Assembly (NCBI GenBank): GCA_017536505.1
Contig: JAFXHG010000038.1
Span: 129,163 to 193,162, forward strand
Source: Bacilli bacterium
GTDB taxonomy: Bacteria; Bacillota_I; Bacilli_A; RF39; UBA660
Direction of reading: 5' to 3'
DNA: 64,000 bases
Under the pieces are notes generated by a model. The model did no database searches, was not told the DNA's origin, and worked only from the letters and a program-made list of their open reading frames with translations. Below are positions 515 to 57,026 of the stretch, in pieces (the stretch's first letter is position 1; each line of letters opens with the position of its first letter). The translations under genes and the position numbers were made by a program.

Positions 515-1174
515 TTAATTAACTAATTCAAATATAAAAACAGTTTGTTTAGTATCACTATATCTTGTACAAGTGATAAGTGTTAATACATTTTTTTCAT
601 AATCTCTATATATTGGAACAGTTCCATCTTTTTTTACTTCATATGTATTAACTAACTTATAAGAATATTTTCTATTATTATAAGTTAAATAGGCCATATC
701 ATTTATTGATAAATTAAATAATTTATCAAAGAAACATACCTTACAAACTCCAGAATGAGCTGCTAATATTAAATTATTATTTTCTTCATTTGGAAATGTA
801 GAACCTTTTATAACTGTTATATTATAGTTTACATTATTGTATTTAGAATTTAAATCTAAAAATCCTCTCTTTAAATTTATTTTAGGTATCTCTAACACAC
901 CTATATAATTATATTGTGTTTGATTACTAGGAACTTGTTCATTATTTTCTTCTTGTGTTTCTTGATTAAATTCTTCTTGCTTTTCTTCAATTACTTCATT
1001 AGAATCTATACTATTAGGTATTTCATTCTCATAAAGCAATATATTCATATCAGAAAAAACTTTATTTCTTCTTTCTTCAAAATATTCAACAAATCCAATA
1101 CAAACACCAAACAGTATTAGTATTATTCCAATTAATAATATACTACTATTCTTCAATTTTATTTTTTTTAACAT
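515..1174 (-). CDS. Sortase-family transpeptidase
   Basis: N-terminal TM anchor, LAAHSG (catalytic His region) and TLITC (catalytic Cys motif TLxTC). Its start overlaps the 3' end of the upstream adhesin gene by 29 nt. The usual Arg about 8-10 residues after the Cys is not obvious. Confidence 0.8.
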   Translation of the reverse strand: MLKKIKLKNSSILLIGIILILFGVCIGFVEYFEERRNKVFSDMNILLYENEIPNSIDSNEVIEEKQEEFNQETQEENNEQVPSNQTQYNYIGVLEIPKINLKRGFLDLNSKYNNVNYNITVIKGSTFPNEENNNLILAAHSGVCKVCFFDKLFNLSINDMAYLTYNNRKYSYKLVNTYEVKKDGTVPIYRDYEKNVLTLITCTRYSDTKQTVFIFELVN

Positions 1175-2939
1175 ATGTAACTATTCCTATACCTAATGCA
1201 ATATCAAACATAGCAATTGCAAGTAAAAGAGCTGATTTAGAACTTAATGTATCTGGGACTTCTACTTCCAATTCGTTTATCATTTTTACCTCAATTACTT
1301 CTTTTGATCCATCTACCGTAAATTTTATTTTTTCTTTACTAAGTTCATAACCTTCTGGGGCTTTTGTTTCAACTAAATAATATTTACCATTTGGTAATCC
1401 AGTAATTTCATAGGCTTTTTCTGTTGATAACCACTTACATGCTGTGTTTTTATTTCCTTTTTTATCTGTACAATATTTTATGACATTACCTTTTTCATCT
1501 TCTATTTGCAAAGTTGCTCCTGGTAACAATTTTTTATTGGTTGAATTTATTTTTGAAATTTTTACAACATTCAATTTATTTGTCATTTTAACTGTTTTAG
1601 TTGTTGTTTCAGCAGTTATTTCAAACTCAACTTTTTCTTTATTTAATACATAACCTTCTGGTGCAATTGTTTCTATTAGATAATATTTTCCAACGCTTAA
1701 ACCTTCTATAACATATGGTTCTTCTGTTGATACCCATTTATAAAGAGTATTTCCAGTTGAATCTTGTACCTCTAAAGATGCTCCTGGTAATTCTTCAATT
1801 CCGGTTACTCCAACTTTCGAAATTGTTACTTTGTTTTTACTATCTGTTAAAGTTATTACACCAGTTAAATTATTCCCATTTAATGTTATTGTTTTTGCTC
1901 TATCAATAACATAACCTTCTGGGGCTTTTACTTCAGTTATTGTATATGTATCATATTCCAAATTTTCTATAACTATAGGATTACCATCAGTTACAAAGGT
2001 TTTAGAATAACCTTTTGTTCCTGTTACTGTTATAGTAGCTCCACTCAAATGAGCATTATTGCCATCTACCTTATTTATTGTTAGTTTTGCTTTAGGTGCA
2101 TTTACTGATATAGATCCTGTTGCAGTAGCACTTGCAGTTGTTTTTTCAGGTTCAACTATATTAGGTGTTACTGATTGATATTCTCCACAAGAGTAGTTTT
2201 GAGCTAAATAATTTGTTTTAGAAATAGATGCTCCAACAGTAACGTTTGCTGTTGTTCCTGCTGAAACAGAAGATGCTGGAATACTTACATAAAATTTGTT
2301 TCCATTTCTTATAACAGTACCTAAATTACTTGTTATAGAAAAATCAGCATCACTATTTTTTGTTATTGTTATTTCATTAGAAATATAATTATCGCCACTT
2401 TTAGTAAAGGTTAACTTACTTGAACTAAAAGATAGTGTTGCCACAGCATATTTTTTCTTTGCTTCAATAGCTGCTTCATACCAACCATAATATTTACTAC
2501 CTTCACCTAAAATTTCTTCTGTTGTTCTAGTATCAGTAACACAAGTATATTGTGTATCTACACCTGAATTACATAAAAATTCATTAATTGCTAATTCTCC
2601 ATAGTAGTAGTTTGCATTGTTTGATACACCTGTTGACACATCAACAGCACCAACACTTTGAATTATACTAGCCACTCCTGCTTTTACCTCATTAGTCCAG
2701 TTGTTATATACCTTACAAGTTTGATTTTTTGCTGCAGGTGTTGTTCTATGAAATTCTGTACAAAATACTGCTGTTGAGCCATAATATTTCAAAGCTAAAT
2801 AATCATAATTATTTAAAGCTTTATCATCACCTTTTTGACTTATTGGCCCTATTTCAGCACTAAAAGCGCTAACGCTTATACTACATAAAAACATAACTAC
2901 TATTAAAAACATGATTAAATGTAATTTATTTTTTTTCAT
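1146..2939 (-). CDS. Cell-wall-anchored adhesin: signal peptide, Cys-containing N-terminal domain, three CnaB/SpaA-type stalk domains, C-terminal sorting signal VPDTL + TM + KKNK
   Basis: Start moved to ATG 2937-2939 (AGGAGG upstream; MKKNKLHLIMFLIVVMFLCSISVSAFS signal peptide). There are three repeats with the G.Y.L.E..APEGY signature. The C-terminus is ...EVPDTLSSKSALLLAIAMFDIALGIGIVTYVKKNKIEE. Confidence 0.8.
   Translation of the reverse strand: MKKNKLHLIMFLIVVMFLCSISVSAFSAEIGPISQKGDDKALNNYDYLALKYYGSTAVFCTEFHRTTPAAKNQTCKVYNNWTNEVKAGVASIIQSVGAVDVSTGVSNNANYYYGELAINEFLCNSGVDTQYTCVTDTRTTEEILGEGSKYYGWYEAAIEAKKKYAVATLSFSSSKLTFTKSGDNYISNEITITKNSDADFSITSNLGTVIRNGNKFYVSIPASSVSAGTTANVTVGASISKTNYLAQNYSCGEYQSVTPNIVEPEKTTASATATGSISVNAPKAKLTINKVDGNNAHLSGATITVTGTKGYSKTFVTDGNPIVIENLEYDTYTITEVKAPEGYVIDRAKTITLNGNNLTGVITLTDSKNKVTISKVGVTGIEELPGASLEVQDSTGNTLYKWVSTEEPYVIEGLSVGKYYLIETIAPEGYVLNKEKVEFEITAETTTKTVKMTNKLNVVKISKINSTNKKLLPGATLQIEDEKGNVIKYCTDKKGNKNTACKWLSTEKAYEITGLPNGKYYLVETKAPEGYELSKEKIKFTVDGSKEVIEVKMINELEVEVPDTLSSKSALLLAIAMFDIALGIGIVTYVKKNKIEE
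1226..2100 (-). repeat. Three tandem CnaB-type (prealbumin-like, isopeptide-type) domain repeats inside the adhesin gene (approximate limits)
   Basis: Repeated protein pattern: KLTINKVD...YTITEVKAPEGYV; KVTISKVG...YYLIETIAPEGYV; VVKISKIN...YYLVETKAPEGYE. Confidence 0.6.
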
Positions 2940-3047
2940 ACTATATCCTCCTATTTTTACTACTATCATTTTATCACAATAAAAAAAATATATCAATTAT
3001 TTTAATAATTAATATACTTTTTTTGGTTTAAATTATTATCTATAAAT

Positions 3048-5688: not shown

Positions 5689-6618
5689 TTACTTCCTTCT
5701 ATTATCATTAAATAAATTTTTTACTTTACCTCTTACTTCACTTACTTGAATAACTTCAGGGCATATTATTAAATGTTTTGCTTCTGCATATTCAAATCGA
5801 TTATTTTCCATATCAATACTTAAATCTACAAACCCAGGTATAACATTCTTAGTTTTATCATTCGATTGATAACTAAGTGTAGGTATTCCAATCCAAAAAA
5901 TATCTCTAAGTTTTGTTTTCATCATGTGACTATGCCCTGATAAAACTATCTTCTCTCCATTTATTATTGGTTTAAACCCATCATATAATTTATGAAATAA
6001 GATTATATTATCGTTTTTTACATTTACATTACCTTGTCCATAACCAATAGGTATTATATCATATCTACTATTTTTTATTGCGGTAGAAATATCTAATCCA
6101 TTATTATGCAAAGAATGATAGTCATGATTTCCTAAAATCATAAAATTTTTTATACTTTTATCATAAGGATATTTTTTTATAAAATATTCTAGTTGAGAAT
6201 GTAAATCTTTTATATTTTTTTGTGCTGATGTATAATCACCCTCTATACTATCACCACAGTTTAAAATAATATTAATACCATTTTTGACTGCATAATCGTA
6301 TACTATATCTAATAGTTTGATATTTGAGTCTACACTACCTATATGTGTATCAGAAATAACTAAACATCTAAATAAATTAACATTTCTAGGCATTTCTATA
6401 TTTATCCTATTTCTATATATATTATTATTATCTTTTTCTATAGTATAACAAATATCAGAATTATATAAATAATTAGGTTTTAATAAATATCCATAATTTA
6501 TTATTTGCTTAATACGTATATATAATTGTTTTTCACTTAAATTTAAAATATTACATATTTCTTTCATTGATTTATTCTTACTTATTAATTCAATTATTTT
6601 TTTATTTACTTCTGTCAT
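5689..6618 (-). CDS. N-terminal HTH-like domain fused to calcineurin-like metallophosphoesterase
   Basis: Residues about 1-60 (IIELISKNKSMKEICNILNLSEKQLYIRIKQIINYGYL) look like a winged or simple HTH. They are followed by VISDTHIG, CGDSIEGD, GNHD and GHSH metallophosphoesterase motifs. Confidence 0.75.
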   Translation of the reverse strand: MTEVNKKIIELISKNKSMKEICNILNLSEKQLYIRIKQIINYGYLLKPNYLYNSDICYTIEKDNNNIYRNRINIEMPRNVNLFRCLVISDTHIGSVDSNIKLLDIVYDYAVKNGINIILNCGDSIEGDYTSAQKNIKDLHSQLEYFIKKYPYDKSIKNFMILGNHDYHSLHNNGLDISTAIKNSRYDIIPIGYGQGNVNVKNDNIILFHKLYDGFKPIINGEKIVLSGHSHMMKTKLRDIFWIGIPTLSYQSNDKTKNVIPGFVDLSIDMENNRFEYAEAKHLIICPEVIQVSEVRGKVKNLFNDNRRK

Positions 6619-6648: not shown

Positions 6649-6679
6649 AAAAAAAGGTATTAAAATTCAATACCTTTTT
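6649..6679 (-). terminator. Intrinsic terminator after the 966-aa surface-protein gene (symmetric A/T flanks, possibly bidirectional)
   Basis: AAAGGTATT-loop-AATACCTTT 9-bp stem, with a 7-A run on the plus strand (U-run on the minus transcript). Confidence 0.6.
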
Positions 6680-6683
6680 AATT

Positions 6684-9584
6684 CTAATTAAGTTTATCTT
6701 TTGCTGTTATTTCAATAGTAGTATTACCTGCTGTGATATTAGTTGTACCACTTAGTGTTGATATTTCAGGTAATTCTATTGTTTCTTCTGTTGGAGTTGC
6801 TAGAACATAATACATTTTTAATGGAGTTCCTAGAGCATTAAGCACAGTAAGTTTATTTTGTAATTCAGTGACTGTTGTTGCTCCTATCCAAGATTTTTGA
6901 ATTTGTAAACTATTCACATTATTATTTCTCCATCCGATTGTAGTACCTCTAACAGGTATACACAAGTTACTCATTAAAGTATCATTGGAAGATTTTAATC
7001 CTTTTTCAATAGTAACAGTTGTAAATACGTTTTCATCAAAATCAACAAACCCCTCTTCTCCTGTAAAAACCATTTTTTTAATATTTCTAATGATTTTTTG
7101 CTGAGAATAATCAATATAATCAGCAGAATCTCCAACCTTTCTTAAAGGCTCATTCAAGAATACATTAGTAGTTACCTCTTCTGTTCCATTTGTTACTTTA
7201 ACTGGTATTTTATATTTTCCATATGGTTCATATTGTGGCATTGTATCTACACTATATTCTCCTCCTACACACATTACTTCTTCTGGACTTACTATACTTT
7301 TATCAAAATCTAACCTTAAATATACTGCTCCATCCGGTTTAACATAATTTCTAAATATTGTTGAACTTTTATTTTCATAAGAAATTAAATTTTTGTTTTC
7401 ATCATACCAAGCAAAACTTGCGGCGAAATTAATTGATACAGAACTAATATCAATGCAATTTATATAATCTGATACAAATCTATCTGTTCTATCATATAAA
7501 GAACCATTTATTAATGCTTTATTATCAGTAAAATTGTCCTTGCTAAACAAATTAATTGTCTTCTCTCCAACACTCTCAACTTCAATAGGAGACTCTAATG
7601 TAGGTATTCCATTTTGTGTGCTGTTTCCATAAATTTTATAATTAACAATATCTTGATTATTAAGGGTTATGTAAGTGCCTGAGTATGTTTCTAAACCATT
7701 AGAAATTTCAACATTTCCGCTTACATCTGGTATAGTTAATATACCATCTTTATATGTGTAATTATAGACTTTTACACCATCTACTTTTACTGAAACATAA
7801 TCTAAAGCTAAATTACTAAAATCTACTGTTAATGTGGCACTTCCCATTACTTCTGTTGGCAATTCAATATTTGATAATCCCATATTAGTTTTAGGTATTG
7901 TTATTACTGGACGTACATAATGTGTTTCTATAACATCAGGTAAACCTAAAGTGGTAGAAAAAACAGTCCAAGCAAAGGAACTACCTGCTCCTCCTTCAGC
8001 ATTCGTAGATGTCCAATATTGATTTGTACTACCTAACCAAGAAGGAATTGTTGTATTAAGTCCTGCTCCACTTTTATCCCATTCCAAATCTCCAACAACT
8101 TGTGCAACTTGATATGCTGTTGGTGCTGTTACTTCTACATTTATCCATCCTGTGGTGTTATTTGCTATTGTAGTATAAACTCCGTCTGCTTTACAAGTTT
8201 CACCGCCATATTCTCCTGACAAACACCAAGTGGTCTTCGCATCAAGATTACTATCCATTATAAGCGATACTTCACCTGCACTAGTTGTTCCAGTTGTACC
8301 ATCTATTAATGTAGTTTCATCCCCATCTTCTAATACATAAAAAGTTCTATAAACCCCATCTCCTGGATCACAACTATATTTATCTCCTATTGTTATTGTT
8401 CCACTATTATCTGTATCAGTTACAAGTGTACATACATAATTTGGTATATCGATATCTGTATATGTTATTTTATAAAATTGTTGAAAATCAAAATCTAACC
8501 TAATATCATAGAAAGTTTTACTACTATTATATCCACCAGATACATATTTTATTTTTATTTTAAATTGTTTTTTCACGCCTAAAGTACATTTGTCATTACT
8601 ATCACATATTTTTTCATTTAAATCATAATCTATTAACTCATATGTTAAATTTGATGGTAATCCTGTTATATTTGCAATAGCTGCTTCTGCATTACCAATA
8701 TTAGTCACTTCAATATTAAGAATTACACTTGAATCTTTATTTGGTAAATTTATTCCAGCACTTACATTACTAACATTATATTCAGTATATGTTGTTTTAC
8801 TATCAGTAACTCCTATACTACCTTTAGATACTGTTATTACTGGGCGAACACCATGCGAATTAATAACATCATCTGCATATACACCACCTAAAAAAGCAAA
8901 ATCGTATCCTGGTCCATTATCTGTATTAATTGAATACATCCCATCAGTAGATGTCCAATAATCTCCTACCAACCATGATGGAATTTCCGTCTCATATGTG
9001 TCTGGCCAAGTTAAGTTTCCACCAGCAGCAGCTATTTGATATGCTGTTGGTGCTGTCACTTCAACATTTGTCCATCCTGTAGTGTTATTTGCTATTGTAG
9101 TATAAACTCCATCTGCTTTACAAGTTTCTCCATCATATTCTCCTGATAAACACCAAGTGGTTTTCTCATCAAGATTACTATCCATTATAAGTGATACATC
9201 TCCTGCGCTAGTTGTTCCAGTTATACCATCTATTAGTGTTGTATTATCTCCATCCTCTAGTACATAGAAAGTTCTATAAACCCCATCTCCTGGATCACAA
9301 CTATATTTATCTCCTACACTTATTGTTCCACTACCATCTGTATCATTAACTAATGTACAAAATTCCCCAAGAGAAACAATAGGTATCTCGTTTACCCCTG
9401 TTACTCTTATATCTTTTTTTATTCTTACATCAGCTATAAAGCCAGTTATATTTAAATTTGAAGAAAAAGCAGAATATCCAACACTTAATAAAAGAATAGT
9501 TAATACTATTATATACGGTATTAACTTTCCTTTGTTAGATAATATATATTCTTTAGCTTTTTCTAATTTTCTGTTTCTTTTCAT
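6684..9584 (-). CDS. Large secreted/surface protein with a SipW-type N-terminal signal, two Cys-rich EF-hand-loop modules and a long beta-rich C-terminal region
   Basis: 966 aa. N-terminus is K-rich + TM + SVGYSAFSSNLNITG. There is an internal duplication (see repeats). No sorting signal or C-terminal TM. Confidence 0.7.
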   Translation of the reverse strand: MKRNRKLEKAKEYILSNKGKLIPYIIVLTILLLSVGYSAFSSNLNITGFIADVRIKKDIRVTGVNEIPIVSLGEFCTLVNDTDGSGTISVGDKYSCDPGDGVYRTFYVLEDGDNTTLIDGITGTTSAGDVSLIMDSNLDEKTTWCLSGEYDGETCKADGVYTTIANNTTGWTNVEVTAPTAYQIAAAGGNLTWPDTYETEIPSWLVGDYWTSTDGMYSINTDNGPGYDFAFLGGVYADDVINSHGVRPVITVSKGSIGVTDSKTTYTEYNVSNVSAGINLPNKDSSVILNIEVTNIGNAEAAIANITGLPSNLTYELIDYDLNEKICDSNDKCTLGVKKQFKIKIKYVSGGYNSSKTFYDIRLDFDFQQFYKITYTDIDIPNYVCTLVTDTDNSGTITIGDKYSCDPGDGVYRTFYVLEDGDETTLIDGTTGTTSAGEVSLIMDSNLDAKTTWCLSGEYGGETCKADGVYTTIANNTTGWINVEVTAPTAYQVAQVVGDLEWDKSGAGLNTTIPSWLGSTNQYWTSTNAEGGAGSSFAWTVFSTTLGLPDVIETHYVRPVITIPKTNMGLSNIELPTEVMGSATLTVDFSNLALDYVSVKVDGVKVYNYTYKDGILTIPDVSGNVEISNGLETYSGTYITLNNQDIVNYKIYGNSTQNGIPTLESPIEVESVGEKTINLFSKDNFTDNKALINGSLYDRTDRFVSDYINCIDISSVSINFAASFAWYDENKNLISYENKSSTIFRNYVKPDGAVYLRLDFDKSIVSPEEVMCVGGEYSVDTMPQYEPYGKYKIPVKVTNGTEEVTTNVFLNEPLRKVGDSADYIDYSQQKIIRNIKKMVFTGEEGFVDFDENVFTTVTIEKGLKSSNDTLMSNLCIPVRGTTIGWRNNNVNSLQIQKSWIGATTVTELQNKLTVLNALGTPLKMYYVLATPTEETIELPEISTLSGTTNITAGNTTIEITAKDKLN
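8109..8432 (-). repeat. Copy 2 of the intragenic 324-bp (108-aa) near-identical repeat
   Basis: CTLVTDTDNSGTITIGDKYSCDPGDGVYRTFYVLEDGDETTLIDG...TTWCLSGEYGGETCKADGVYTTIANNTTGWINVEVTAPTAYQ. It lies 927 bp from copy 1. Confidence 0.9.
9036..9359 (-). repeat. Copy 1 of the intragenic 324-bp (108-aa) near-identical repeat
   Basis: CTLVNDTDGSGTISVGDKYSCDPGDGVYRTFYVLEDGDNTTLIDG...TTWCLSGEYDGETCKADGVYTTIANNTTGWTNVEVTAPTAYQ. Confidence 0.9.
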
Positions 9585-9585
9585 A

Positions 9586-10740
9586 CTATCCCTCTAAATC
9601 TGTAGCTTTTATAGTTAATAAATATATTATGTTTTCACTTTCAATATAAAAGTAACATTTTTGATGAGAAACTATACTATGATACATAATTGGTCTTTTT
9701 AAATTATCTCTTGCATCTAATAATTCTTCAAATCTTTTAATTTTTATAATTTCTTTATTTGCTAATCTTGGTTCAGTCGGAGTTTCAACTATTAATCTAT
9801 CATATTCATTAAGTATTTTTTTAATATACTTATCATACTTAGAATCTTTAGGCACAAGCATCATTAACAATTCTAGTAGTTTTAGAAGTGACGCTACTGC
9901 AAGTATAAATACAACAGCTGTTAACACTCCAAATACAATATTTCCAGATTTTACTTCTGATTTTTTAACAACACTTTGCGAATTATTTATTCCTGTATCA
10001 CTTAATCCTATTTCAAGTGTTCTTTGAGTTAAAGGAATTGTCAAAGACATTTGTTTTGAATCATTTAAATTTATACTATATTCATCGTTCTGAACTTTTT
10101 TATTAATGCGTACATAAACTAATAATTCACTATTTGCTTCTACTCCAAAAGTAGATTTAAAATTATTTGCTATAGCATTATAATAATCATAATCAATACT
10201 TAAGTTGTCTTTTATAGTATGAATATTTTTTCCAGAAAGAACATCTTGTTCTCCTGTTTTTAATACATATTCTTTTTCATATAATTTATTATTTCCTTGA
10301 TTACCGGAAATAATTAATTTTCCAATGACATCATAATTGAAAGTCATATCTGAAGCATTATCAATAATAAACTGATAATTAAAATCAACATTAATATTTT
10401 TGATTAAACTTGCTATATAATTCTTACCTTTATCAAGATATGGTGTTTCATAGAAATCATTCTCTTTTAAATAAACTTTATAATTTAAATTACCCATTTC
10501 TTGATACTTAGCATATTTTTCTTCTTCAACTTTTAATGATTTAAATAAAAACAAAACACTAAGACCCATCAAAATTGCAAAAGCAAAAAGACAAATAAGA
10601 ATTCTAGCTGTATAACTTAAATAAACATTATTCACTTTATATTTAAATTTATTAATGTTTTTTTGAATTTCACTAGTTTTCTTTATTGCATCTTTTTCTT
10701 TCGTTGTTGTTTTTTTCGCTGTTTTCTTTTTATTCCCCAT
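9586..10740 (-). CDS. Bitopic membrane protein (K-rich cytoplasmic N-tail, TM, about 200-aa external domain, TM, about 95-aa cytoplasmic C-domain); function unknown
   Basis: Start moved to ATG 10738-10740 (AGGTG 6 nt upstream). Two clear hydrophobic spans. Its stop is 1 nt from the start of the 966-aa gene, so the two are probably translationally coupled. Confidence 0.6.
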   Translation of the reverse strand: MGNKKKTAKKTTTKEKDAIKKTSEIQKNINKFKYKVNNVYLSYTARILICLFAFAILMGLSVLFLFKSLKVEEEKYAKYQEMGNLNYKVYLKENDFYETPYLDKGKNYIASLIKNINVDFNYQFIIDNASDMTFNYDVIGKLIISGNQGNNKLYEKEYVLKTGEQDVLSGKNIHTIKDNLSIDYDYYNAIANNFKSTFGVEANSELLVYVRINKKVQNDEYSINLNDSKQMSLTIPLTQRTLEIGLSDTGINNSQSVVKKSEVKSGNIVFGVLTAVVFILAVASLLKLLELLMMLVPKDSKYDKYIKKILNEYDRLIVETPTEPRLANKEIIKIKRFEELLDARDNLKRPIMYHSIVSHQKCYFYIESENIIYLLTIKATDLEG

Positions 10741-10752
10741 TTTATTCACCTA

Positions 10753-11877
10753 CTATCCATTTAACCATACAGTTGGAAGACCTACATATGGTATTGCAAG
10801 ATTTACGGTCCCAATTACCATTTCTTCTTCTACCACATAATTATCTTCTGTTTTATTTGCATCTCCCTTAGTATAAAAATAATAATGGCCATCTTCTTCT
10901 ATAATGTTTATAAGCCTATGTACAACTACAACCCCACTATGTTTAAATGCGATAACTTGTCCTACTTCTAGTGTATCGTATTTATCATCAATTTTTTCTA
11001 CGATTACTACATCACCTTTTTTGATTTTAGGATCCATACTACCACTAGCAATAGCCAAAGCATAATAATGAAAATATCCTGATGTGAAATATACTATAAC
11101 TACCATTAAAACAGCAGGAATAATTATAGATCCAAGATTTTTTTTCTTATAATCTCTTTCTACATCCGCATCTTTTTCTTTTTCAAAAAATTGATATACT
11201 CTAGTTAATAAAATAATTGGTAATATTAAACCTACAATCGAAGTTAAATATTCATTTAAATCCGGCACAATAGGAATTAAATATACATATAATCTTGTTA
11301 TTAATAAGTATAATATTATTGGCTTATAACCAGTTTTCTTTGTTATATAAGTAAATACTATATTACTACTTATTGCTGGAAATAAAGAAAGCGCTATAAA
11401 TATAAAAATATTATACCCAGAATCAAATTTATTATAATATATTGCTTCAGTTACATCCAAAAAAGTAAAAATTATTATAGAAATAATTAAAAGGAGTTTG
11501 TTTCCTTCTGATTTTTTTAATATCATATATCTTAATATTTCTTTTAAAATTATCGTAAGGGTTAAAGGCAAAATAAAAGTTGTTAAACCGTACCAATTAT
11601 AGTAATCACCAGTTTTAGCAAACCCTATAATAACACCTAACAAATAAATAAATACAAAATATATAAGTAAAAATATGATTACTTCAAAAAGAATATCTTT
11701 AGTATATCTATGTCTATCCTTTTCAAATCCAAAAACAAATTTAAATATAACTAAACTTAATAATAAAAATACTACAAAATTATATCCACCTAATATATTT
11801 GATACAAAACTATTTAAAAGGAAAATAAAGAAGATTATAATTTGAAACAATAGCATCTTTTTATAACTCTTTTTCAT
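10753..11877 (-). CDS. ER/archaeal-type (SipW-like) signal peptidase I fused to an N-terminal about 250-aa multi-pass membrane domain
   Basis: The C-terminal about 110 aa carry IASGSMDPKIKKGDVV (catalytic Ser box), VVVHRL and TKGDANKTED (the GDAN box is typical of SipW/Sec11-type S26B peptidases). The N-terminal 250 aa hold about 8 hydrophobic helices. Confidence 0.8.
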   Translation of the reverse strand: MKKSYKKMLLFQIIIFFIFLLNSFVSNILGGYNFVVFLLLSLVIFKFVFGFEKDRHRYTKDILFEVIIFLLIYFVFIYLLGVIIGFAKTGDYYNWYGLTTFILPLTLTIILKEILRYMILKKSEGNKLLLIISIIIFTFLDVTEAIYYNKFDSGYNIFIFIALSLFPAISSNIVFTYITKKTGYKPIILYLLITRLYVYLIPIVPDLNEYLTSIVGLILPIILLTRVYQFFEKEKDADVERDYKKKNLGSIIIPAVLMVVIVYFTSGYFHYYALAIASGSMDPKIKKGDVVIVEKIDDKYDTLEVGQVIAFKHSGVVVVHRLINIIEEDGHYYFYTKGDANKTEDNYVVEEEMVIGTVNLAIPYVGLPTVWLNG

Positions 11878-11912
11878 TGTTTTCCTCCTAAATAATCTTG
11901 TTAAAATATATT

Positions 11913-11940
11913 AAGGGGAACAATATAAATATTGCCCCTT
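11913..11940 (-). terminator. GC-rich hairpin between the major secreted-protein gene and the peptidase gene (terminator/attenuator)
   Basis: AAGGGG(AA)CAATAT-AA-ATATTGCCCCTT. The minus transcript is followed by AAUAUAUUUU. The stem is unusually G+C-rich for this DNA. Confidence 0.55.
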
Positions 11941-11961
11941 AATATAAAGTTAGTTATTTTA

Positions 11962-12657
11962 TTATTGTAAAGTTGTAACTGAATCATAAGTTAAGTTGAT
12001 GTCTCCGAATGCAACTTCGAAATCACCATCAGCTAAAGCAGTTCCAGTATAAGTTAAAGTAACTACAACTTCTTCACTAGCATTTTTATTTAATTGATGT
12101 TTAGCTGCAAGAGCATGATCTTCTACTGTGAAAGTATCGTTTCCAACTTGAACTGAAACGTTAATATTAGCACAAGCATTAGTAACCATTGTAGCATCAG
12201 TTGTTGCTCCAGGAGTACAAACTTTGAATGATCCTAAATCAGCACCTTCAGCACTAACTGCATTTTCAAATTCAACAGTATTTAAATATGCATCATATAA
12301 TCCATCATTAACTGCATAGAATGAATAAGTAACAGTTTGTCCTGGTTCAGTAAATGTAGCTTTAAGTCCAGAAATTACTGAAACACCATCTACATCAGCT
12401 ATAGTAGCATCTGCAGCAGTTGGTAAAACAGCAGTTTCTCCATTAGCTGTTGTAGCAACACCTGAAACAGCTCCGTTTACAACTTCACCACTTACTTTAG
12501 AGAATGCAACATTAAATGTTGAATCATCAGGAGTAACAGTTGCGCTAGATTTAATAGTTAAATTACTAGTAAATGCAGCGAACCCTAGAGATAAACCAAC
12601 AACAGCAACACATAAAGCAACGATTGCAACTACTTTTGAACTTCTTCCTTTTTCCAT
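11962..12657 (-). CDS. Secreted Ala/Thr/Val/Gly-rich protein with a SipW-type (TasA/camelysin-like) signal; candidate major fibre/sheath subunit
   Basis: N-terminus MEKGRSSKVVAIVALCVAVVGLSLGFAAFTSNLTIKSS. Strong AAGGAGG RBS. Locally higher G+C and different codon choice from its neighbours. Sits directly upstream of the SipW-like peptidase. Confidence 0.55.
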   Translation of the reverse strand: MEKGRSSKVVAIVALCVAVVGLSLGFAAFTSNLTIKSSATVTPDDSTFNVAFSKVSGEVVNGAVSGVATTANGETAVLPTAADATIADVDGVSVISGLKATFTEPGQTVTYSFYAVNDGLYDAYLNTVEFENAVSAEGADLGSFKVCTPGATTDATMVTNACANINVSVQVGNDTFTVEDHALAAKHQLNKNASEEVVVTLTYTGTALADGDFEVAFGDINLTYDSVTTLQ

Positions 12658-12669
12658 AACTAACCTCCT

Positions 12670-12728
12670 TTCATATCATATTCACAAGGTACAACAATAA
12701 AAGAGTTGTATTTGAGATATGATATGAA
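12670..12728 (-). promoter_or_regulatory. Structured 5' leader abutting the RBS of the 231-aa secreted-protein gene
   Basis: Perfect 12-bp inverted repeat TTCATATCATAT (12670-12681) / ATATGATATGAA (12717-12728), with an inner 6-bp stem TACAAC/GTTGTA. The RBS is at 12663-12670. Candidate promoter: TTGACA (12795-12800), N17, TAAACT (12772-12777). Confidence 0.4.
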
Positions 12729-12811
12729 TTTTAAATCACTTACTCATACTCTCTCAACCTTGTCTATTATAAGTTTACAATTTATTACCAATTTTGTCAA
12801 TATTTTTTATA

Positions 12812-22306: not shown

Positions 22307-22742
22307 TTTCGTATTCCACTATTTGAGCCATTCTATTTTTATATACTGGATCTACAGTATTTTCTTTTGCTTCTAAAAATGCATCAACTATTTTTATATT
22401 TTCTTCTATAGGTGCCATCCCTGATAAAGCAATCACATTTACAAAATCTCTTTCTTTTCCATGGATTGCCTCTTCTGGAGTATTAATCTTACCACATCTA
22501 ACACCTTTTACTTTGTTACAAGCTATTGATATTCCTATCGCACTACCACATATTGCTATACCATAATCAACTTCATTTTTAGCAACTGCTTCACCAATTA
22601 TGAATCCATATGTTGTGTAATCTACTCTACCTTCTTGATTTGTACCATAATTAACTACATTATATCCTTTATTAGTTAAATATTCTGTCAATTTTTGTTT
22701 TGTTTCAATTCCTCTATGATCATTTGCTATTCCTATTTTCAT
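22299..22742 (-). CDS. rpiB: Ribose-5-phosphate isomerase B
   Basis: MKIGIANDHRG..., CGSAIGISIACNK. RpiB/LacAB family, 147 aa. Confidence 0.9.
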   Translation of the reverse strand: MKIGIANDHRGIETKQKLTEYLTNKGYNVVNYGTNQEGRVDYTTYGFIIGEAVAKNEVDYGIAICGSAIGISIACNKVKGVRCGKINTPEEAIHGKERDFVNVIALSGMAPIEENIKIVDAFLEAKENTVDPVYKNRMAQIVEYEND

Positions 22743-24352
22743 TTTTTTCTTCCTTTCTTTAAATTTATATTAAATAATGTTTTTAAATTACCATTAAAAT
22801 GGTGTATTACAAAATATATTCCAAAACTTACTACGCCAAATAATAATAGTATTGGTATTTGTATTAATCTTCCATCTAAATTAGTTGGTATAATTAATTT
22901 TAATAATACAATAACCACTTCAAACACTAACCAAGAAACTACATAACCAGGTAATTTTTTTCTTGTATCACTAAAGCTAAAATCATATTTTTTATTAAGT
23001 ACCATTAAAGATATGATTATTGATACACTATAACCAATCATTGCTGCAAGTACTGCTCCATAACTTGGTTCATATCCCATCTTATTTACAAGTAACATCA
23101 TTGGTACATCAAGTATAGTATTAAGTACTAACCCTATAAATACTGTAGTTATAACTAATTTATATTTACTTAAACCTTGTAATGTATTTACTACTATTGT
23201 ATATAATCCTCCAAATAGAGCATAGAAAACATATACTTTAAATACTATTGGTCCATAGAAACTTTCTCCATAGAACAAAGTCCATACAGGTTCAGCTAAA
23301 AATGATAAAAATAAAGTTGCTGGAACCAATATAAACAATATATATTGTAAAGCTTTATTAAATTTATTATCCACATCTTTTTTATCACCTTTAGTATAAC
23401 TTGATACTATATTAGGTATTAAACTAGTTGTCAACCCTGTAATAACAGCAAGTAATATATTATTTAATTTAACTCCCCAAGTAGTAAATACACTAACAAC
23501 TGATTCAGTAGCAGTAGCGCTCATCCCAAGTATATCATTCATAGTTCTAGATATTAAAATCATATCGACTGTATTATAAAGATTGTATATTAAACTTATT
23601 ATTATGAAAGGTATTGAGTAAGTAAGTATTTTCTTTATTATTTCTTTTTTACTTATTTGTTCTTTATCTTTAATATTATCATTCGGTAATATTTTTGATT
23701 TATTTATTTTTATTTTTAAATATATATAAGCAACTATACCACCAAAGAATGCTCCACTAACAGCTATTCCTATAGCTGTTTTCATATCTGTCTCAAATAC
23801 TCTTAAAGCAAGATAACTACCTACAAGTATTACAGCAACTCTAATTATTTGTTCAAGAACTTGACTTATACTTGTAGGCCCTATATATTTATGCCCCTGT
23901 AAGAATCCTTTAGTAACACTTAAAAATGGTACAACTAGTATTGCAAAAGACACCATTCTTATTACAAATGCTATATCAGAAATTGTATTTCCTCCTGTAG
24001 CATTACCTATTATTAATTTTCCTATTTGAGGTGCGAATATAAATAAAAGCAAAAAGATTAATATTGATATTATTGATATTATTTTTAAAGATAATTTATA
24101 AGTATCTTTAACAGCTTTTTTATATCCTAAAGCATTATATTCACTTGTTAGCTTACTAATAGCAAAAGGAAATCCAGCACTAGATATGGCTAAAAACAAA
24201 TTATAAATATTATATGCATAGCCATATAATGCACCACCTTGTTCCCCAATTATTGCATTAAATGGAATTACATATAATAACCCTATTACTTTTACTATTA
24301 TTATTCCAAGGGTTGCGATTAATGCTCCTTCTATTAAAGAATTTTTTTTCAT
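22739..24352 (-). CDS. MOP-superfamily flippase (MurJ/SpoVB/YtgP type)
   Basis: 537 aa, about 14 TM helices, typical N-terminus GALIATLGIIIVKVIGLLYVIPF. Confidence 0.8.
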   Translation of the reverse strand: MKKNSLIEGALIATLGIIIVKVIGLLYVIPFNAIIGEQGGALYGYAYNIYNLFLAISSAGFPFAISKLTSEYNALGYKKAVKDTYKLSLKIISIISILIFLLLFIFAPQIGKLIIGNATGGNTISDIAFVIRMVSFAILVVPFLSVTKGFLQGHKYIGPTSISQVLEQIIRVAVILVGSYLALRVFETDMKTAIGIAVSGAFFGGIVAYIYLKIKINKSKILPNDNIKDKEQISKKEIIKKILTYSIPFIIISLIYNLYNTVDMILISRTMNDILGMSATATESVVSVFTTWGVKLNNILLAVITGLTTSLIPNIVSSYTKGDKKDVDNKFNKALQYILFILVPATLFLSFLAEPVWTLFYGESFYGPIVFKVYVFYALFGGLYTIVVNTLQGLSKYKLVITTVFIGLVLNTILDVPMMLLVNKMGYEPSYGAVLAAMIGYSVSIIISLMVLNKKYDFSFSDTRKKLPGYVVSWLVFEVVIVLLKLIIPTNLDGRLIQIPILLLFGVVSFGIYFVIHHFNGNLKTLFNINLKKGRKK

Positions 24353-25338: not shown

Positions 25339-26532
25339 ATGTATACATTTACAAATAATTTAGATAAGAAAGAATATAACAAATTTATCGAAAACTATTC
25401 TATGGCTAGTTTTATGCAAGAATATGAATGGTCAAACATTAAAGATAATTGGGAAAATTTTCATTGCGGTCTTTATAAAAACAAAAAATTAGTCGCTGTT
25501 TGTATGATTTTAGTAAAAAAAGTATTTAAAAATATTAAATTATTTTACATACCTAGAGGTTATTTAATAGATTTTAACAATTTAGAAGATTTAGAATCTA
25601 TGACTTATCATATAAAAAAATTAGCTAAAGAAAATAATGCTTATGTAGTTAAAATAGATCCTAACTTCTGTATAAGTGATAATAGTTTTAAAGATGAAGA
25701 AGTTGAACACAACTATTCAAAAAATTATAAAGTTAAACATGATAATCTTATTAAATTAGGTTATAAACATACAGGAATAAACAAGGAAATGGGTAAAAAT
25801 TTACAACCACAATACAATGTTATAGCGCCTTTATGTGACATTAATTCAAATATTTTAACAAGTGACGAAGTTTTAAAAACATACGGAAGAATAAAATCTT
25901 ATTGTGGTAATTATCATTCTAAAAGAGGAGTTAGTTTTGAAATTACTAATGATATAAACAGAATTGATGACTTAGTTAACCTTTTAAAACAAACTGAGAA
26001 AAAGCAAAACATAAATTTAAGAAACAAAGAATATTTTGTTAAAATTATGAAAAATTTTAAAGATACTGCTTACCTTGTTTTTGGAAATATAGATTTAAAT
26101 AAATATTTGAATTTCTTAAAAGAAAATAATGGCAAACAAGATTCTATTGATGAAGTAAAAAAATTAATAAAAGAATATGGTGACACTATGATTCTTTCTA
26201 CTGCTCTTATTTTACTTCCAAAAAACAAAAAAGGCATTAGAACCAGTGAATATTTATATGCAGGAAACAGTTTACATTTAACTAATCTACATGTGTCTGT
26301 AGGTTTAGTATTTGAAATAATCAAATTTTCTATTGAAAATAACTGTCATTATTGTAATTTGGGTGGTGTTGATGGCAACCTTAATGATCGCTTAACAACA
26401 TTCAAGCAAAGATTTAATGGTAGAATAATGGAATTTATAGGTGAATATGACTTACCTACTTCATGGCTTTACTATCCTATTAAAACTTTTTATCCATTAC
26501 TTTTAAAAATTTATAAAAAAATAAAAAGATAA
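25339..26532 (+). CDS. FemAB-family peptidoglycan interpeptide-bridge aminoacyltransferase
   Basis: 397 aa. N-terminus ...EYNKFIENYSMASFMQEYEWSNIKDNW... and length fit FemX/FemA/MurM. Confidence 0.75.
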   Translation: MYTFTNNLDKKEYNKFIENYSMASFMQEYEWSNIKDNWENFHCGLYKNKKLVAVCMILVKKVFKNIKLFYIPRGYLIDFNNLEDLESMTYHIKKLAKENNAYVVKIDPNFCISDNSFKDEEVEHNYSKNYKVKHDNLIKLGYKHTGINKEMGKNLQPQYNVIAPLCDINSNILTSDEVLKTYGRIKSYCGNYHSKRGVSFEITNDINRIDDLVNLLKQTEKKQNINLRNKEYFVKIMKNFKDTAYLVFGNIDLNKYLNFLKENNGKQDSIDEVKKLIKEYGDTMILSTALILLPKNKKGIRTSEYLYAGNSLHLTNLHVSVGLVFEIIKFSIENNCHYCNLGGVDGNLNDRLTTFKQRFNGRIMEFIGEYDLPTSWLYYPIKTFYPLLLKIYKKIKR

Positions 26533-32047: not shown

Positions 32048-32805
32048 AATTCTATTAACTCCGTCATTTCATTTTGTCTAGCTACTATTATATTTTTAAA
32101 ATCTATATTTTTTCTTTCTAATGTTTGATTTAAAGTAGAAAGTGCTAGTTCTTCTGTATTATTTTGTTCACTTAAGTGAGCTAAAACTATATGTTTAGTA
32201 TTGTTTCCTATCAATCTACTTAAATAATATGCAGAATCTTTGTTAGATAAATGTCCTTTATCACTTAATATTCTTATCTTAGTATGATGAGGATATTTAG
32301 GATTATTCATAAGCATTTCTACGTCATGATTACTTTCGAACACATATAAATTTTTATTTTTTATGTATTCGAAGTTTTTTTCATTTATATATCCTGTATC
32401 TGTAATATAGACCATAGAAGATCCTTTTTCTTCTATTAAATAACCTCTTATATCAGTAACATCATGTGATAATCTTATAGATTTTATAATAATGTCACTA
32501 TTTATTTCTATAACTTCATTACTACTAATATTTTCTATTTTTAAATTAGATTCTTTTAATATCTTATCTGATATATATACCAGTGGATTGTATTTTTTTG
32601 AAAAAACTTTTAAGCCGCCCACATGATCTATATGTGCATGTGTAACTAAAATCATATCTATATCTGAAGGGCTTACTCCAATAGATTTTAAACTTTTTTC
32701 AACATACAAAGAACTTGTACCTATGTCTATTAATATTTTATGATTATTTGTTTCAACATAAGTACAATTTCCTTTGCTTCCACTTGATAAAACACATACT
32801 TTCAT
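32044..32805 (-). CDS. MBL-fold metallo-hydrolase (YycJ/WalJ-like)
   Basis: VTHAHIDHVGG motif. Position next to rlmH as in the B. subtilis yycJ region. Confidence 0.8.
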   Translation of the reverse strand: MKVCVLSSGSKGNCTYVETNNHKILIDIGTSSLYVEKSLKSIGVSPSDIDMILVTHAHIDHVGGLKVFSKKYNPLVYISDKILKESNLKIENISSNEVIEINSDIIIKSIRLSHDVTDIRGYLIEEKGSSMVYITDTGYINEKNFEYIKNKNLYVFESNHDVEMLMNNPKYPHHTKIRILSDKGHLSNKDSAYYLSRLIGNNTKHIVLAHLSEQNNTEELALSTLNQTLERKNIDFKNIIVARQNEMTELIEL

Positions 32806-34505
32806 CGATAATAATTTAAAGGATTAGTAGTACAAGCATATCTAGCACATGTTCTTATTTCATAATGTAAATGTGGTCCTGTTGCCCAACCAGTATCTCC
32901 TACATAACCAATTATTTGACCACGAGATACTGTACTTCCAACAGATAAGTTAGGTGCAAAGCCTTTCATGTGTGCATATACAGTATAATAACCGTTATTA
33001 TGATTTATAATTATATGATATCCATAATTATACACATATTCCATTGTTACAATAGTACCATTGTTAGCAGCATATACATTAGATCCATATCCAGTTCCTG
33101 CTATATCAATTCCTGAATGGAAATTTCCTTCTCCAAATAACTGTAATCTATATCCATAGTATGAAGAGAAAGTATAACCACTATTTGTTGGCCATCCCCA
33201 AGATGCAGTACTTCCAACATTAGGTACATATTTTGTCCCTATATTAATAATTTTAGGTATAGAACTTTTTAATACCTCTTTACCTTCAGGATCTACATAA
33301 CTAATTTCTCCATTTACACTTTTTACATTTTGGCTAACTCTTTCTAGACCATTTTCACCCTGTTGAGCAACAACAATACTTCCTTGAGTAAGGTTCTTAT
33401 CGTGTTGTTCTATAATTTCAAAATCAGTTTCTTTATCTACTACTTCATAAGATTCTACTACTATTTTAATTTTAGGATCTACTGTAGAAATAGTTACATC
33501 TGTTCCTGTAACTAGCAAATTATCTCTACTAGTATATTGTGAATTGAAAATTAAGAATTCTTGTACACTTATTTGATTTTCAAAAGCAAGAGACTCTATA
33601 GAATCTCCAGTTTTTACTTTAACTTTTTTTTCTTCAAATTTATCACCATATAAAAGATATGCAGATAAATCTTTTGAAGAAGTATAAATTTTTTCTTCTA
33701 CAGGGATATTTACAGCTTTATAAGTTATCTCTTCTTGAACATATATATTTTCTATTATTGATCCTGTTGTAACTATTTCTGTTTGTTGATCATTTTTATA
33801 TGCTTCATATTTAACATCATCAACAAAAATAGTTATCAAATCTTCTATTGCGTCAGAAAATATTTTTTTATCTATTGTATAAATTTCAATATCTGATCCT
33901 TCTTCTTCTGATCTTTTTATTGTAAATTTATACCCAGATATTGTACTTGTTTTCTTAGACATTATCTCTTTATATATTTGTTCAACAGATGTTAAATTAT
34001 TATCATATGTATATACTTTTTTTATTTCAGTACCTTCTGGTGAATATACATCGTCAACATATTCGTAAATACTATTTTTATGAACATACAATCTCATTTG
34101 TTCTACATCTGGGCCTAAATAATTATATAGATAATTATTCTTATAGAAATTTAAATTTTCTACTTCCAAATCAGTTAAATTATATAATTCTCTATTAGCT
34201 ATTAGATAATTAGCTTTTTCAAGTAAGGAATAATTTCCTATATTTACGTTAGATTCATATTTTTTAAAAGTATCTATTGCATCTAATTTTAAATTATACT
34301 CTTTTAAATTTTCTTTTATAGCATCAGCTTGTTTATTTATGTAATCTTCTAATTCTTTTTTTGATTCTATTAAACCAATAGATTCATTATCCAAATAAAC
34401 TTGGTAATATGCATTGGGTTTTGAAGTTGTCTTATATCCAAAACCAAGTAAAAACACTATAACTGATAACAAAATTATAAAAAAGTATGTACTTATTTTT
34501 TTCAT
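32802..34505 (-). CDS. Membrane-anchored peptidoglycan hydrolase: LysM-like + G5-like + M23 domains
   Basis: C-terminal FHSGIDIAG...YAHM...GDTGWATGPHLHYEI (M23). A G5-like segment ...QQGENGLERVSQNVKSVNGEISY...IINIGTK. Confidence 0.8.
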   Translation of the reverse strand: MKKISTYFFIILLSVIVFLLGFGYKTTSKPNAYYQVYLDNESIGLIESKKELEDYINKQADAIKENLKEYNLKLDAIDTFKKYESNVNIGNYSLLEKANYLIANRELYNLTDLEVENLNFYKNNYLYNYLGPDVEQMRLYVHKNSIYEYVDDVYSPEGTEIKKVYTYDNNLTSVEQIYKEIMSKKTSTISGYKFTIKRSEEEGSDIEIYTIDKKIFSDAIEDLITIFVDDVKYEAYKNDQQTEIVTTGSIIENIYVQEEITYKAVNIPVEEKIYTSSKDLSAYLLYGDKFEEKKVKVKTGDSIESLAFENQISVQEFLIFNSQYTSRDNLLVTGTDVTISTVDPKIKIVVESYEVVDKETDFEIIEQHDKNLTQGSIVVAQQGENGLERVSQNVKSVNGEISYVDPEGKEVLKSSIPKIINIGTKYVPNVGSTASWGWPTNSGYTFSSYYGYRLQLFGEGNFHSGIDIAGTGYGSNVYAANNGTIVTMEYVYNYGYHIIINHNNGYYTVYAHMKGFAPNLSVGSTVSRGQIIGYVGDTGWATGPHLHYEIRTCARYACTTNPLNYYR

Positions 34506-56432: not shown

Positions 56433-56488
56433 GTTCCACCTCAAATCTATATAATATTATACACTTTTACAAGTAAAAAAAAAAGACG

Positions 56489-56902
56489 TTATCTTCTTTT
56501 TTTAAAGAATGATTGAACTAATTCTCTACACTTTTTTTCACACACTTGGGAAATAATTTCTATATTTTTTAATTGATCCGTGGATCCATAATTTTCATTT
56601 TTAACTCCATATACTATTTTTTTTATTCTAGATTGTTCTATAGCTCCTGAACACATCATACAAGGTTCCATAGTTACATAAATCGTACAATCTTCTAATC
56701 TCCAATTTTTTAATTTTTTACAGGCTTTTGAAATAGCAATTATTTCTGCATGTTTAGTAACATTCTTAGTTTTTTCTTTTTTATTAAATGCTTTAGCAAT
56801 TATTTTATTATTTTTTACTATTAAAGCCCCTACCGGTACTTCTTCGTATTTATAAGCTTTTTTTGCTTCTTTTATAGCAATATTCATATAATATTCATTC
56901 AT
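56489..56902 (-). CDS. tadA: tRNA-specific adenosine deaminase
   Basis: HAEIIAI and PCMMCSGAI CDA motifs. Start moved to ATG 56900-56902 (GGAGG at 56908-56912). The track's earlier start is a TTG inside the RBS. Confidence 0.9.
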   Translation of the reverse strand: MNEYYMNIAIKEAKKAYKYEEVPVGALIVKNNKIIAKAFNKKEKTKNVTKHAEIIAISKACKKLKNWRLEDCTIYVTMEPCMMCSGAIEQSRIKKIVYGVKNENYGSTDQLKNIEIISQVCEKKCRELVQSFFKKRR

Positions 56903-56914
56903 TTTTACCTCCAA

Positions 56915-56930
56915 TGTTTCACGTGAAACA
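56915..56930. other. parS site 1 (ParB/Spo0J-binding centromere palindrome)
   Basis: Exact TGTTTCACGTGAAACA, 2 nt from the tadA Shine-Dalgarno. Confidence 0.8.
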
Positions 56931-56941
56931 TATATTTTAAT

Positions 56942-56957: not shown

Positions 56958-57026
56958 TTGTATTTAATTTATAATATTTCAAAAAAATAATACTTAAAAT
57001 TATATTTAATCAATTTATATTATCAA

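Follow-up and report, generated by a model that had tools for sequence, protein, structure and literature searches.

A 64-kb stretch of contig JAFXHG010000038.1 from a Bacilli bacterium, hereafter the window, carries four genes on its minus strand that probably encode a signal-peptidase-dependent surface fiber system of the TasA/Tafi/AbpX kind. The open reading frames (ORFs) occupy 6684-12657 and specify, from first to last, a 231-amino-acid (aa) putative major fiber subunit, a 374-aa fusion of a membrane domain to a signal peptidase I, a 387-aa DUF5305 protein, and a 966-aa modular surface protein that may serve as a nucleator or tip adhesin. With its DUF5305 adjacency, its predicted polytopic peptidase, and its proposed strand-sharing pair of subunit and tip protein, the locus fits the fiber loci that combine a signal peptidase I with DUF5305. 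A first-pass annotation of this DNA had seen in it a system dedicated to processing and assembling a fiber with a large accessory or tip protein, and we infer that this remains the best reading.

A motif shared by the subunit and the large protein

The 231- and 966-aa proteins both begin with a basic N-terminus and a single hydrophobic helix, followed by a motif (SLGFAAFTSNLTI in the subunit and SVGYSAFSSNLNI in the large protein) in which 8 of 13 residues are identical. The first-pass annotation had described both features correctly. A loose regular expression for the motif matched at these two sites only in the six-frame translation of the window. Profiles of 38 subunit homologs and of 31 large-protein N-termini matched one another with a probability of 91% (E = 1e-6) over 47 columns covering the signal, the motif, and the first strand, the similarity being significant over this N-terminal stretch only. 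Searched against the window, a hidden Markov model of the large-protein N-terminus matched the subunit ORF (E = 8e-4), with no other match. Subunit ORFs from related loci retain the motif in 89 of 101 cases, and large-protein ORFs in 41 of 57. The former yield the consensus G-L-S-[ILV]-G-F-A-A-F-S-x-x-L-x-I-x-S-S-A-x-V-x-P and the latter L-S-[IV]-G-[FY]-S-A-F-x-N-x-L-x-I-x-x-I-x-A-x-V-R-I; G, F/Y, A-F, L, and I are near-invariant in both families.

With G-(F/Y)-(A/S) ahead of A-F, the motif conforms to the -3/-1 rule, and we place the predicted signal peptidase I cut before A-F because of this rule and by analogy with TasA and AbpX. The proposed N-terminal donor strand after the subunit cut is AFTSNLTIKSSATV, and the strand that follows the predicted cut in the 966-aa protein is AFSSNLNITGFIADVRI. 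The best-conserved part of the subunit family is the stretch right after the predicted cut, and G25, F26, L33, and I35 are invariant. Such conservation beyond a cut is unusual for an ordinary signal peptide. The hydrophobic positions after the cut alternate (+2, +6, +8, +12, and +14), a predicted layout that matches those of the experimentally defined donor strands of TasA and AbpX. We infer that the shared motif combines a -3/-1 cleavage site with the highly conserved beta-strand after it.

A-F is also the N-terminus of mature TasA, whose fiber chain 8aur_A starts AFNDIK, which bears out the earlier suggestion that the shared element resembles the TasA cleavage region. The donor strand of TasA comprises residues 28-38, of which F29 and I32 are buried in the next subunit (PMC9674648), and AbpX is cut between TYA and QWSETLSLS, its strand having a conserved aromatic residue at +2 (bioRxiv 10.64898/2026.01.04.697558). 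TapA carries the TasA donor-strand sequence (PMC9674648) and is believed to provide the first strand for TasA (PMC10151520). TasA and TapA are a direct precedent for two proteins around a peptidase that share an N-terminal strand.

The two proteins do not belong to the "SipW-cognate" signal class to which they had first been likened. At E ≤ 10, Peptidase_M73 (PF12389), TIGR04088, and TIGR04090 (BsaA) match none of the 38 members of the subunit family, and TIGR04088 matches neither window protein; as positive controls, TasA and a BsaA-type protein from a related locus (L056) gave TIGR04088 E values of 1.2e-9 and 2.1e-5. Two other pilin types were rejected. In type IV pilins, a G|F(T/S)LxE cleavage motif should precede the hydrophobic helix; here the motif follows the helix, and there is no N_methyl match. 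Sortase-assembled pilins are not indicated either, as the proteins have no LPXTG motif or hydrophobic tail and end in ...LTYDSVTTLQ and ...EITAKDKLN.

Conservation of the four-gene module

A search that took one genome from each species returned 138 relatives of the subunit, and 80 loci were kept, all from metagenome-assembled genomes (MAGs). These are labeled as uncultured Bacilli, "Tenericutes," Mycoplasma sp. CAG:877, or Erysipelotrichaceae and derive from the guts of human, goat, rabbit, mouse, and chicken. Synteny was counted over the 38 genomic loci with at least 6 kb of flank on each side: the peptidase fusion and the DUF5305 gene were each present in 34, the large-protein N-module in 27, and all three in 26. 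Gene order is near-constant (subunit, peptidase, DUF5305, large protein). Reciprocally, all 18 peptidase-centered metagenome loci with sufficient room contained the subunit and DUF5305, and 13 of the 18 contained the N-module. Because of this synteny in 38 genomic and 18 peptidase-centered loci, the four genes are a conserved unit, displaying the co-occurrence in related genomes that the first-pass annotation had singled out as a check.

Synteny and motif data show only that the enzyme and its substrates belong together. They would also suit an alternative that we consider unlikely, in which the locus is dedicated to the export and processing of surface proteins that do not polymerize. The peptidase-DUF5305 complex would recognize the conserved motif and release a small, abundant coat protein or antigen and large adhesins, which would remain on the wall or be secreted as monomers. 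The conserved strand would then be, with equally low probability, a recognition or quality-control element rather than a donor strand. Conservation extending about 15 residues past the cut, with alternating hydrophobic positions, goes beyond any known recognition need of signal peptidase I, and all characterized systems with a dedicated archaeal-type signal peptidase I plus DUF5305, or with SipW, make donor-strand fibers. Both points favor polymerization.

One related locus (L056:13042-16846) has a canonical module about 6 kb downstream of the new module, consisting of a 183-aa SipW ORF (TIGR02228, 2e-30) and BsaA-family proteins with TIGR04088 signals (VGTTFAYFTS), such that two parallel peptidase/substrate sets coexist in one genome, each with its own motif class. 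Extra short SipW-like ORFs occur in L037, L044, and L061. In another locus (L001:4178-14242), a DDE transposase gene is inserted between the second and the third of three subunit paralogs. The large-protein gene of this locus seems broken into a 183-aa N-module ORF without a start and a 772-aa DUF6273 ORF, and may be a pseudogene or reflect an assembly error. Six loci (L004, L015, L018, L021, L022, and L039) lie in MAGs labeled Muribaculaceae or Bacteroidaceae and have Bacilli-type genes; these are probably mislabeled or contaminated bins.

The peptidase fusion and the neighboring DUF5305 protein

The 374-aa protein joins an eight-helix membrane domain (residues 1-238; 11164-11877), an anchor helix (residues 249-266), and a signal peptidase I domain (residues ~270-374; 10756-11070). 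Its AlphaFold2 model, with a predicted local distance difference test (pLDDT) score of 79, has eight membrane helices over residues 3-238, the anchor helix, and a beta-rich catalytic domain. Residues 250-370 match TIGR02228 with 81.2 bits (cutoff, 51.85; E = 7e-23), and the Peptidase_S26 and Peptidase_S24 models also score above their cutoffs. Four candidate catalytic residues, S280, H320, D339, and D345, are invariant in 35 homologs and indicate a Ser/His rather than a Lys type. Foldseek matched the catalytic domain best to human SEC11A (7p2p_A, E = 1.3e-5) and SEC11C (7p2q_A, E = 6.7e-5), followed by Streptococcus pyogenes SipA (4n31_A, E = 1.8e-3) and then Staphylococcus aureus SpsB. Profile and model matches thus assign the protein to the archaeal/endoplasmic reticulum-type signal peptidases I (S26B, SipW/SEC11-like). 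The first-pass description of a SipW-type peptidase fusion stands as to this type; orthology to Bacillus SipW was rejected, as the NF046067 score is 70 bits against a cutoff of 190.

Fusion of the peptidase to a large membrane domain, also noted in the first-pass annotation, is borne out by the eight helices and recurs in relatives, the two halves forming one ORF in 70 of 75. We retrieved 1,455 peptidase homologs, and those listed are at least 57% identical over their full length and carry no annotation beyond "signal peptidase I." With the peptidase alignment as the query, a metagenome scan for distant relatives near AbpX-like genes found only close gut and rumen relatives of at least 39% identity. 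The eight-helix domain has no Pfam family among 35 members. A CPBP/Rce1 protease was considered and rejected: the only structural match of the domain, to 4cad, is weak (E = 0.3; TM-score, 0.47-0.48), and the domain has no invariant histidine and is therefore not an active CPBP protease. By sequence, the domain belongs to no known family.

The similarity to SipA (4n31_A), a homolog essential for pilus polymerization, raises the question of whether the peptidase domain is mainly a noncleaving assembly chaperone of the SipA/LepA kind, with the exported proteins staying anchored by their helices or being cut by the housekeeping signal peptidase. SipA itself is not known to have catalytic residues. 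In the fusion protein the catalytic Ser, His, and Asp are invariant across the 35 homologs, and small -3/-1 residues are conserved in both substrate families, making such a chaperone role the least probable of the alternatives considered here.

Immediately after the peptidase gene lies that of the 387-aa protein, which matches PF17231 (DUF5305) at 5.4e-18. It has a lysine-rich N-terminus and two transmembrane helices (TM1, residues ~48-69; TM2, ~270-297), from which we predict a cytoplasmic N-terminus, an extracellular domain between the helices, and a cytoplasmic C-terminal domain. The earlier term "bitopic" was misapplied given the second helix. Two transmembrane helices had been counted correctly; the protein is not an extra component, DUF5305 being a proposed accessory in Tafi and AbpX loci. 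The literature that we found places DUF5305 throughout in archaeal or bacterial donor-strand fiber systems (PMC11821415, PMC12337348, bioRxiv 10.64898/2026.01.04.697558), tied in Tafi and AbpX loci to fiber-specific signal peptidases, sometimes as a fusion. In Haloarcula Tafi, deletion of the peptidase TafD blocks TafA processing and fiber formation (PMC11821415). TafG is the DUF5305 protein thought to act with TafD, and TafD-TafG fusions occur (PMC11821415, PMC12337348). By analogy, the 387-aa protein is a putative, TafG-like signal peptidase accessory.

The subunit family

The 231-aa protein consists of a basic N-terminus, a hydrophobic helix (residues 6-23), the motif, and a beta-sandwich body (residues ~50-225), with two cysteines, C147 and C162, that are invariant in the family. 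Its AlphaFold2 model (pLDDT, 88.5) shows the signal helix, unstructured residues 24-44, and then a confident beta-sandwich. Homologs numbered 392 among the matches listed. Against 1.84 billion representative proteins, 2,485 relatives were found at E ≤ 1e-3 and 624 at E ≤ 1e-30; the 2,485 are clusters at 50% identity, some of which hold hundreds of near-identical metagenome members. No Pfam or NCBIfam family was assigned to the subunit or to 37 homologs, with the threshold relaxed to E ≤ 10, although weak Ig-like matches recur within the family (DUF7507, HYDIN_VesB Ig, and Cep192_D5).

Could the locus be a diverged tapA-sipW-tasA operon, and hence a canonical member of the TasA/camelysin-SipW (or BsaA) group? 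The peptidase is SipW-like (NF046067, E = 2e-19), the mature subunit is predicted to begin with A-F as TasA does, and the PG..T..F...N.G segment of the subunit aligns with the TasA segment KPGDKLTKDFQFENNG. The TasA-type models nevertheless miss 38 of 38 family members yet detect TasA, which scores 2.4e-37 against PF12389; the SipW equivalog score lies far below its cutoff; a separate canonical SipW and BsaA-type set resides 6 kb away in L056; and TapA is absent, whereas DUF5305 and the eight-helix domain are present. We regard this assignment as very unlikely. Membership in the AbpX family proper was likewise rejected, as no sequence similarity was found and the acidic residue at position 4 of the donor strand is missing. 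A metagenome scan with AbpX, intended to build an AbpX profile, returned no relatives. AbpX, an accepted member of the TasA superfamily, itself fails the TasA-type models (PF12389, 0.072; no TIGR04088 match), and the failure of the subunit is therefore no exclusion from a TasA superfamily defined by structure.

Some subunit genes occur in tandem arrays with no peptidase nearby. One array holds 10 paralogs that are 34-76% identical (L072:3430-11400), and another holds 5 that are 26-60% identical (L069:1671-11412). These look like a reservoir of variant subunits, and arrays of 5 to 10 diverged paralogs suggest variation of the fiber surface.

The modular surface protein

The large-protein family spans 530 to 1,330 aa, and its only common part is an N-module of about 190 residues. 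In the 966-aa protein, the N-module comprises residues 1-66 and 258-380 and is split by a DUF6273-related domain of ~190 aa (residues 67-257; 8814-9386, minus strand), which recurs after the module at residues 381-570 (7875-8444, minus strand). The N-module is uninterrupted in most family members. Residues 575-966 form C-terminal domains without a family assignment. Across the family the C-terminal domains are interchangeable, including DUF6273, BspA LRR, DUF285, Flg_new, LamG, and ALK_LTK_GRD. This domain swapping agrees with the initial view of the second substrate as a modular, adhesin-like protein. The sequence of the 966-aa protein has neither an LPXTG motif nor a C-terminal anchor.

The DUF6273-related domain also sits behind a type IV pilin N-terminus (P0149) and behind a Peptidase_M73 N-terminus (P0167), the gene for the latter adjoining a T2SS-F gene. 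From these placements, it appears to be cargo on several kinds of fiber.

Proposed assembly mechanism

In the mechanism that we propose, Sec would export the 231-aa protein, with its N-terminal helix holding the precursor in the membrane. The peptidase, acting with DUF5305 and the fused eight-helix domain, would cut the subunit at GFA|AF and the 966-aa protein at GYS|AF, and cleavage would expose a new N-terminus, AF(S/T)xxLxIxSSAxV. The freed strand would enter the beta-sandwich of a neighboring subunit (donor-strand complementation), giving a noncovalent fiber. The 966-aa protein bears the same predicted cut site and strand on a different N-terminal module and would be cut by the same enzyme. 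It may give the first donor strand, or join or cap one fiber end. As a nucleator or tip adhesin, in a role like that of TapA toward TasA, it would display variable domains, lectin-like ones among them. An excess of subunit over machinery would result from the hairpin that follows the subunit gene.

Several observations weigh against this reading. The hosts are all uncultured MAGs. A subunit profile searched against all PDB sequences gave no matches at E ≤ 10, neither to TasA nor to AbpX (9sj2/9rhp), and Foldseek found nothing in the PDB below E = 1e-3 for the subunit model. The TasA fiber (8aur_A) was matched with E = 0.031 and a TM-score of 0.27, on par with a CBM3 module and chaperone-usher pilins. 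Alignment with hhalign was marginal for both TasA, whose score was reached or exceeded by 1 of 100 shuffles, and AbpX (5 of 100). Position +4 of the subunit strand is N, S, or Q, so that the acidic calcium-binding residue of AbpX is absent. The mature subunit body shows no detectable homology to the large-protein N-module (hhalign probability, ~1%), and no wall or membrane anchor for a finished fiber is evident.

In the structural comparison that the first-pass annotation had suggested, the subunit modeled as a beta-sandwich, with no significant match to TasA. The hhalign alignments with TasA and AbpX are collinear over the signal, the motif, the PG..T..F...N.G strand, and the cysteine region; an alignment with the Peptidase_M73-type N-terminus mentioned above (P0167) is also collinear and was not significant. 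Taken from sequence and model comparisons, the resemblance of the subunit to TasA and AbpX is only marginal. The lack of a significant fold match to a known fiber subunit favors the alternative in which the exported proteins remain monomeric, as does the occurrence of subunit-family members with their own C-terminal adhesin domains (LRR_5 and DUF6273), which fit stand-alone adhesins. The AlphaFold2 monomer speaks against that alternative, as it leaves the strand detached from the domain.

A bolder version of the fiber reading, which we offer as speculative and rather improbable, is that the subunit, instead of being a diverged TasA, belongs to a separate class of beta-sandwich pilins that arrived at N-terminal donor-strand assembly by convergence. 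The peptidase with its eight-helix domain and DUF5305 would then be a self-contained membrane machine, a Gram-positive analog of an usher, coupling cleavage to polymerization and to the loading of interchangeable tip adhesins, and the locus would represent a very abundant new pilus type of uncultured Bacilli in human and animal guts.

Locus organization and genomic context

The gene order, the hairpin, the terminator, and both motif copies are all located where the first-pass annotation had placed them (Table 1). The genes for the machinery are tightly packed, with 3 nt between the peptidase and DUF5305 genes and 1 nt between the DUF5305 and 966-aa protein genes. A GGAGG ribosome-binding site stands directly ahead of the subunit ATG at 12657. 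The promoter-like site upstream is a consensus match only, and such matches are equal in number in the region and in shuffled sequence. The stem-loop between the subunit and peptidase genes has a folding energy of -17.3 kcal/mol (z = -4.6), and none of 200 shuffles folds as well; it is probably a partial terminator or an mRNA stabilizer that would raise subunit over machinery transcript. The hairpin and U-run past the 966-aa protein gene (-10.9 kcal/mol, z = -4.3) mark the operon end. A simple consensus terminator scanner called neither structure because their loops, G+C content, and T-tracts lie outside its thresholds.

Table 1. Coordinates of the module and its sequence elements in the window
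Feature	Position	Strand	Basis or remark
Promoter-like site TTGACA-17 nt-TAAACT	12772..12800	minus	Upstream of subunit gene; consensus match only
231-aa putative major fiber subunit	11962..12657	minus	AlphaFold2, homolog searches
Motif SLGFAAFTSNLTI, subunit	12553..12591	minus	Predicted cut G-F-A / A-F, between A27 (12577-12579) and A28 (12574-12576)
Stem-loop between subunit and peptidase genes	11907..11946	minus	Followed by A/U-rich tail; folding
374-aa membrane domain-signal peptidase fusion	10753..11877	minus	TIGR02228, AlphaFold2, SEC11A match
387-aa DUF5305 protein	9586..10749	minus	PF17231; literature; co-occurrence
966-aa modular surface protein, putative nucleator or tip adhesin	6684..9584	minus	
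Motif SVGYSAFSSNLNI, 966-aa protein	9447..9485	minus	Predicted cut G-Y-S / A-F, between S38 (9471-9473) and A39 (9468-9470)
Terminator-like hairpin and U-run	6651..6679	minus	Starts 4 nt past the stop codon of the 966-aa protein gene

Directly downstream of the operon is a gene for a fusion of a helix-turn-helix domain to a calcineurin-like metallophosphoesterase (5689-6618, minus strand). It could regulate the locus, a reading disfavored by its absence from the called genes of the two relatives whose gene lists were read (L001 and L002). About 3.7 kb from the module, positions 515-2996 (minus strand) hold a second, sortase-dependent surface-protein or pilin system. Its components are a 616-aa protein (1146-2996) with three SpaA/prealbumin-fold domains (9e-49) and a sortase (515-1174; PF04203, 8.5e-15) whose gene overlaps the end of that for the larger protein. 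The window further encodes FemAB, a MurJ/polysaccharide-flippase-like protein, and an M23 peptidase with a G5 domain, which indicate a walled Gram-positive host despite the "Mycoplasma" and "Tenericutes" labels on related MAGs. It also holds dnaX, gyrA, gyrB, recF, and the signal recognition particle RNA, suggesting a position near the replication origin (wall and origin genes collectively at 25339-26532, 22739-24352, 32802-34505, 54759-63160, and 57161-57257).

Biological significance

The subunit family is unannotated, comprises the 2,485 clusters described above, and, as far as sampled, occurs only in gut Bacilli that are uncultured and have reduced genomes, their hosts being humans, ruminants, rabbits, mice, and chickens. 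If the fiber reading is true, these fibers would be a main surface structure of a little-understood section of the gut microbiota and would probably serve it as an organelle for binding to the host or to glycans. Variation in antigenicity or binding specificity would then be suggested by the modular tip adhesins and the paralog arrays, and the paradigm of fibers made by signal peptidase I and DUF5305 would come to include common gut bacteria in addition to extremophilic archaea. The eight-helix domain of the fusion would be a conserved and tractable candidate for the step that couples signal cleavage to strand-exchange assembly.

Comparison with known systems

Chaperone-usher pili (Pap and Fim) share with the proposed fiber a beta-sandwich subunit whose N-terminal extension would complete the fold of its neighbor, and a separate tip adhesin built from a pilin-like module and a lectin-like domain. 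The subunit has weak Foldseek matches to PapA, PapG, and pilins of FimD complexes. There is, however, no periplasmic chaperone, usher, or outer membrane here, and the likeness is mechanistic only.

Compared with the tapA-sipW-tasA operon of Bacillus subtilis (PMC9674648, PMC10151520), the locus likewise has a dedicated archaeal/endoplasmic reticulum-type peptidase between the major subunit and an accessory protein, the accessory carries the N-terminal strand of the subunit, and the mature N-terminus, predicted in our case, is A-F. TasA assembles by donor-strand complementation with the accessory as nucleator, a mode that is proposed here too. The two differ in that the peptidase of the window is fused to an eight-helix domain and paired with DUF5305, the substrates fail Peptidase_M73 and TIGR04088, the accessory is a 966-aa modular adhesin instead of a small TapA, and the gene order is different.

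The Tat-fimbriae (Tafi) system of haloarchaea (TafA/E, TafD, and TafG; PMC11821415, PMC12337348) also places a conserved pair of peptidase and DUF5305 protein beside variable structural genes, and its major and minor pilins and adhesin-like proteins assemble by strand donation, a mode also proposed here. Its hosts are archaea, however, and its substrates are mostly Tat-dependent, whereas those of the window look Sec-type and have no twin arginine; TafD has four transmembrane helices and an extra outside domain.

Close in composition are the AbpX loci of archaea and bacteria, for which a "structurally distinct" signal peptidase I with ten transmembrane helices is reported along with DUF5305, minor subunits, and predicted tip proteins (bioRxiv 10.64898/2026.01.04.697558). 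AbpX-type loci of Thermoproteota, Bacillota, and Chloroflexota have the same set of major subunit, tip protein, polytopic signal peptidase I, and DUF5305 protein. In both systems the donor strand, here predicted from sequence, directly follows the signal cut and is aromatic at +2, two cysteines and a PG...N.G strand are features of the subunit, and members occur in Bacillota. The subunit family of our locus is without detectable similarity to AbpX and has S, N, or Q rather than an acidic residue at +4. Its putative tip proteins are a separate large family with swapped adhesin domains, and the locus itself contains no gene for an SLH or LPXTG anchor. Ten transmembrane helices are reported for the AbpX-locus peptidase and AlphaFold2 gives nine here, a comparison made by description. 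The first-pass annotation had regarded the combination of genes as undescribed; the same gene set appears in the 2025-26 papers on AbpX and Tafi loci, and because AbpX loci have the same parts list, that claim no longer holds. What is new is that the subunit and the putative tip protein come from large families that lack annotation and are restricted to uncultured gut Bacilli, and that the peptidase is fused to an uncharacterized eight-helix domain. The locus is accordingly no categorically new system but a sizeable, unexplored surface system of gut bacteria.

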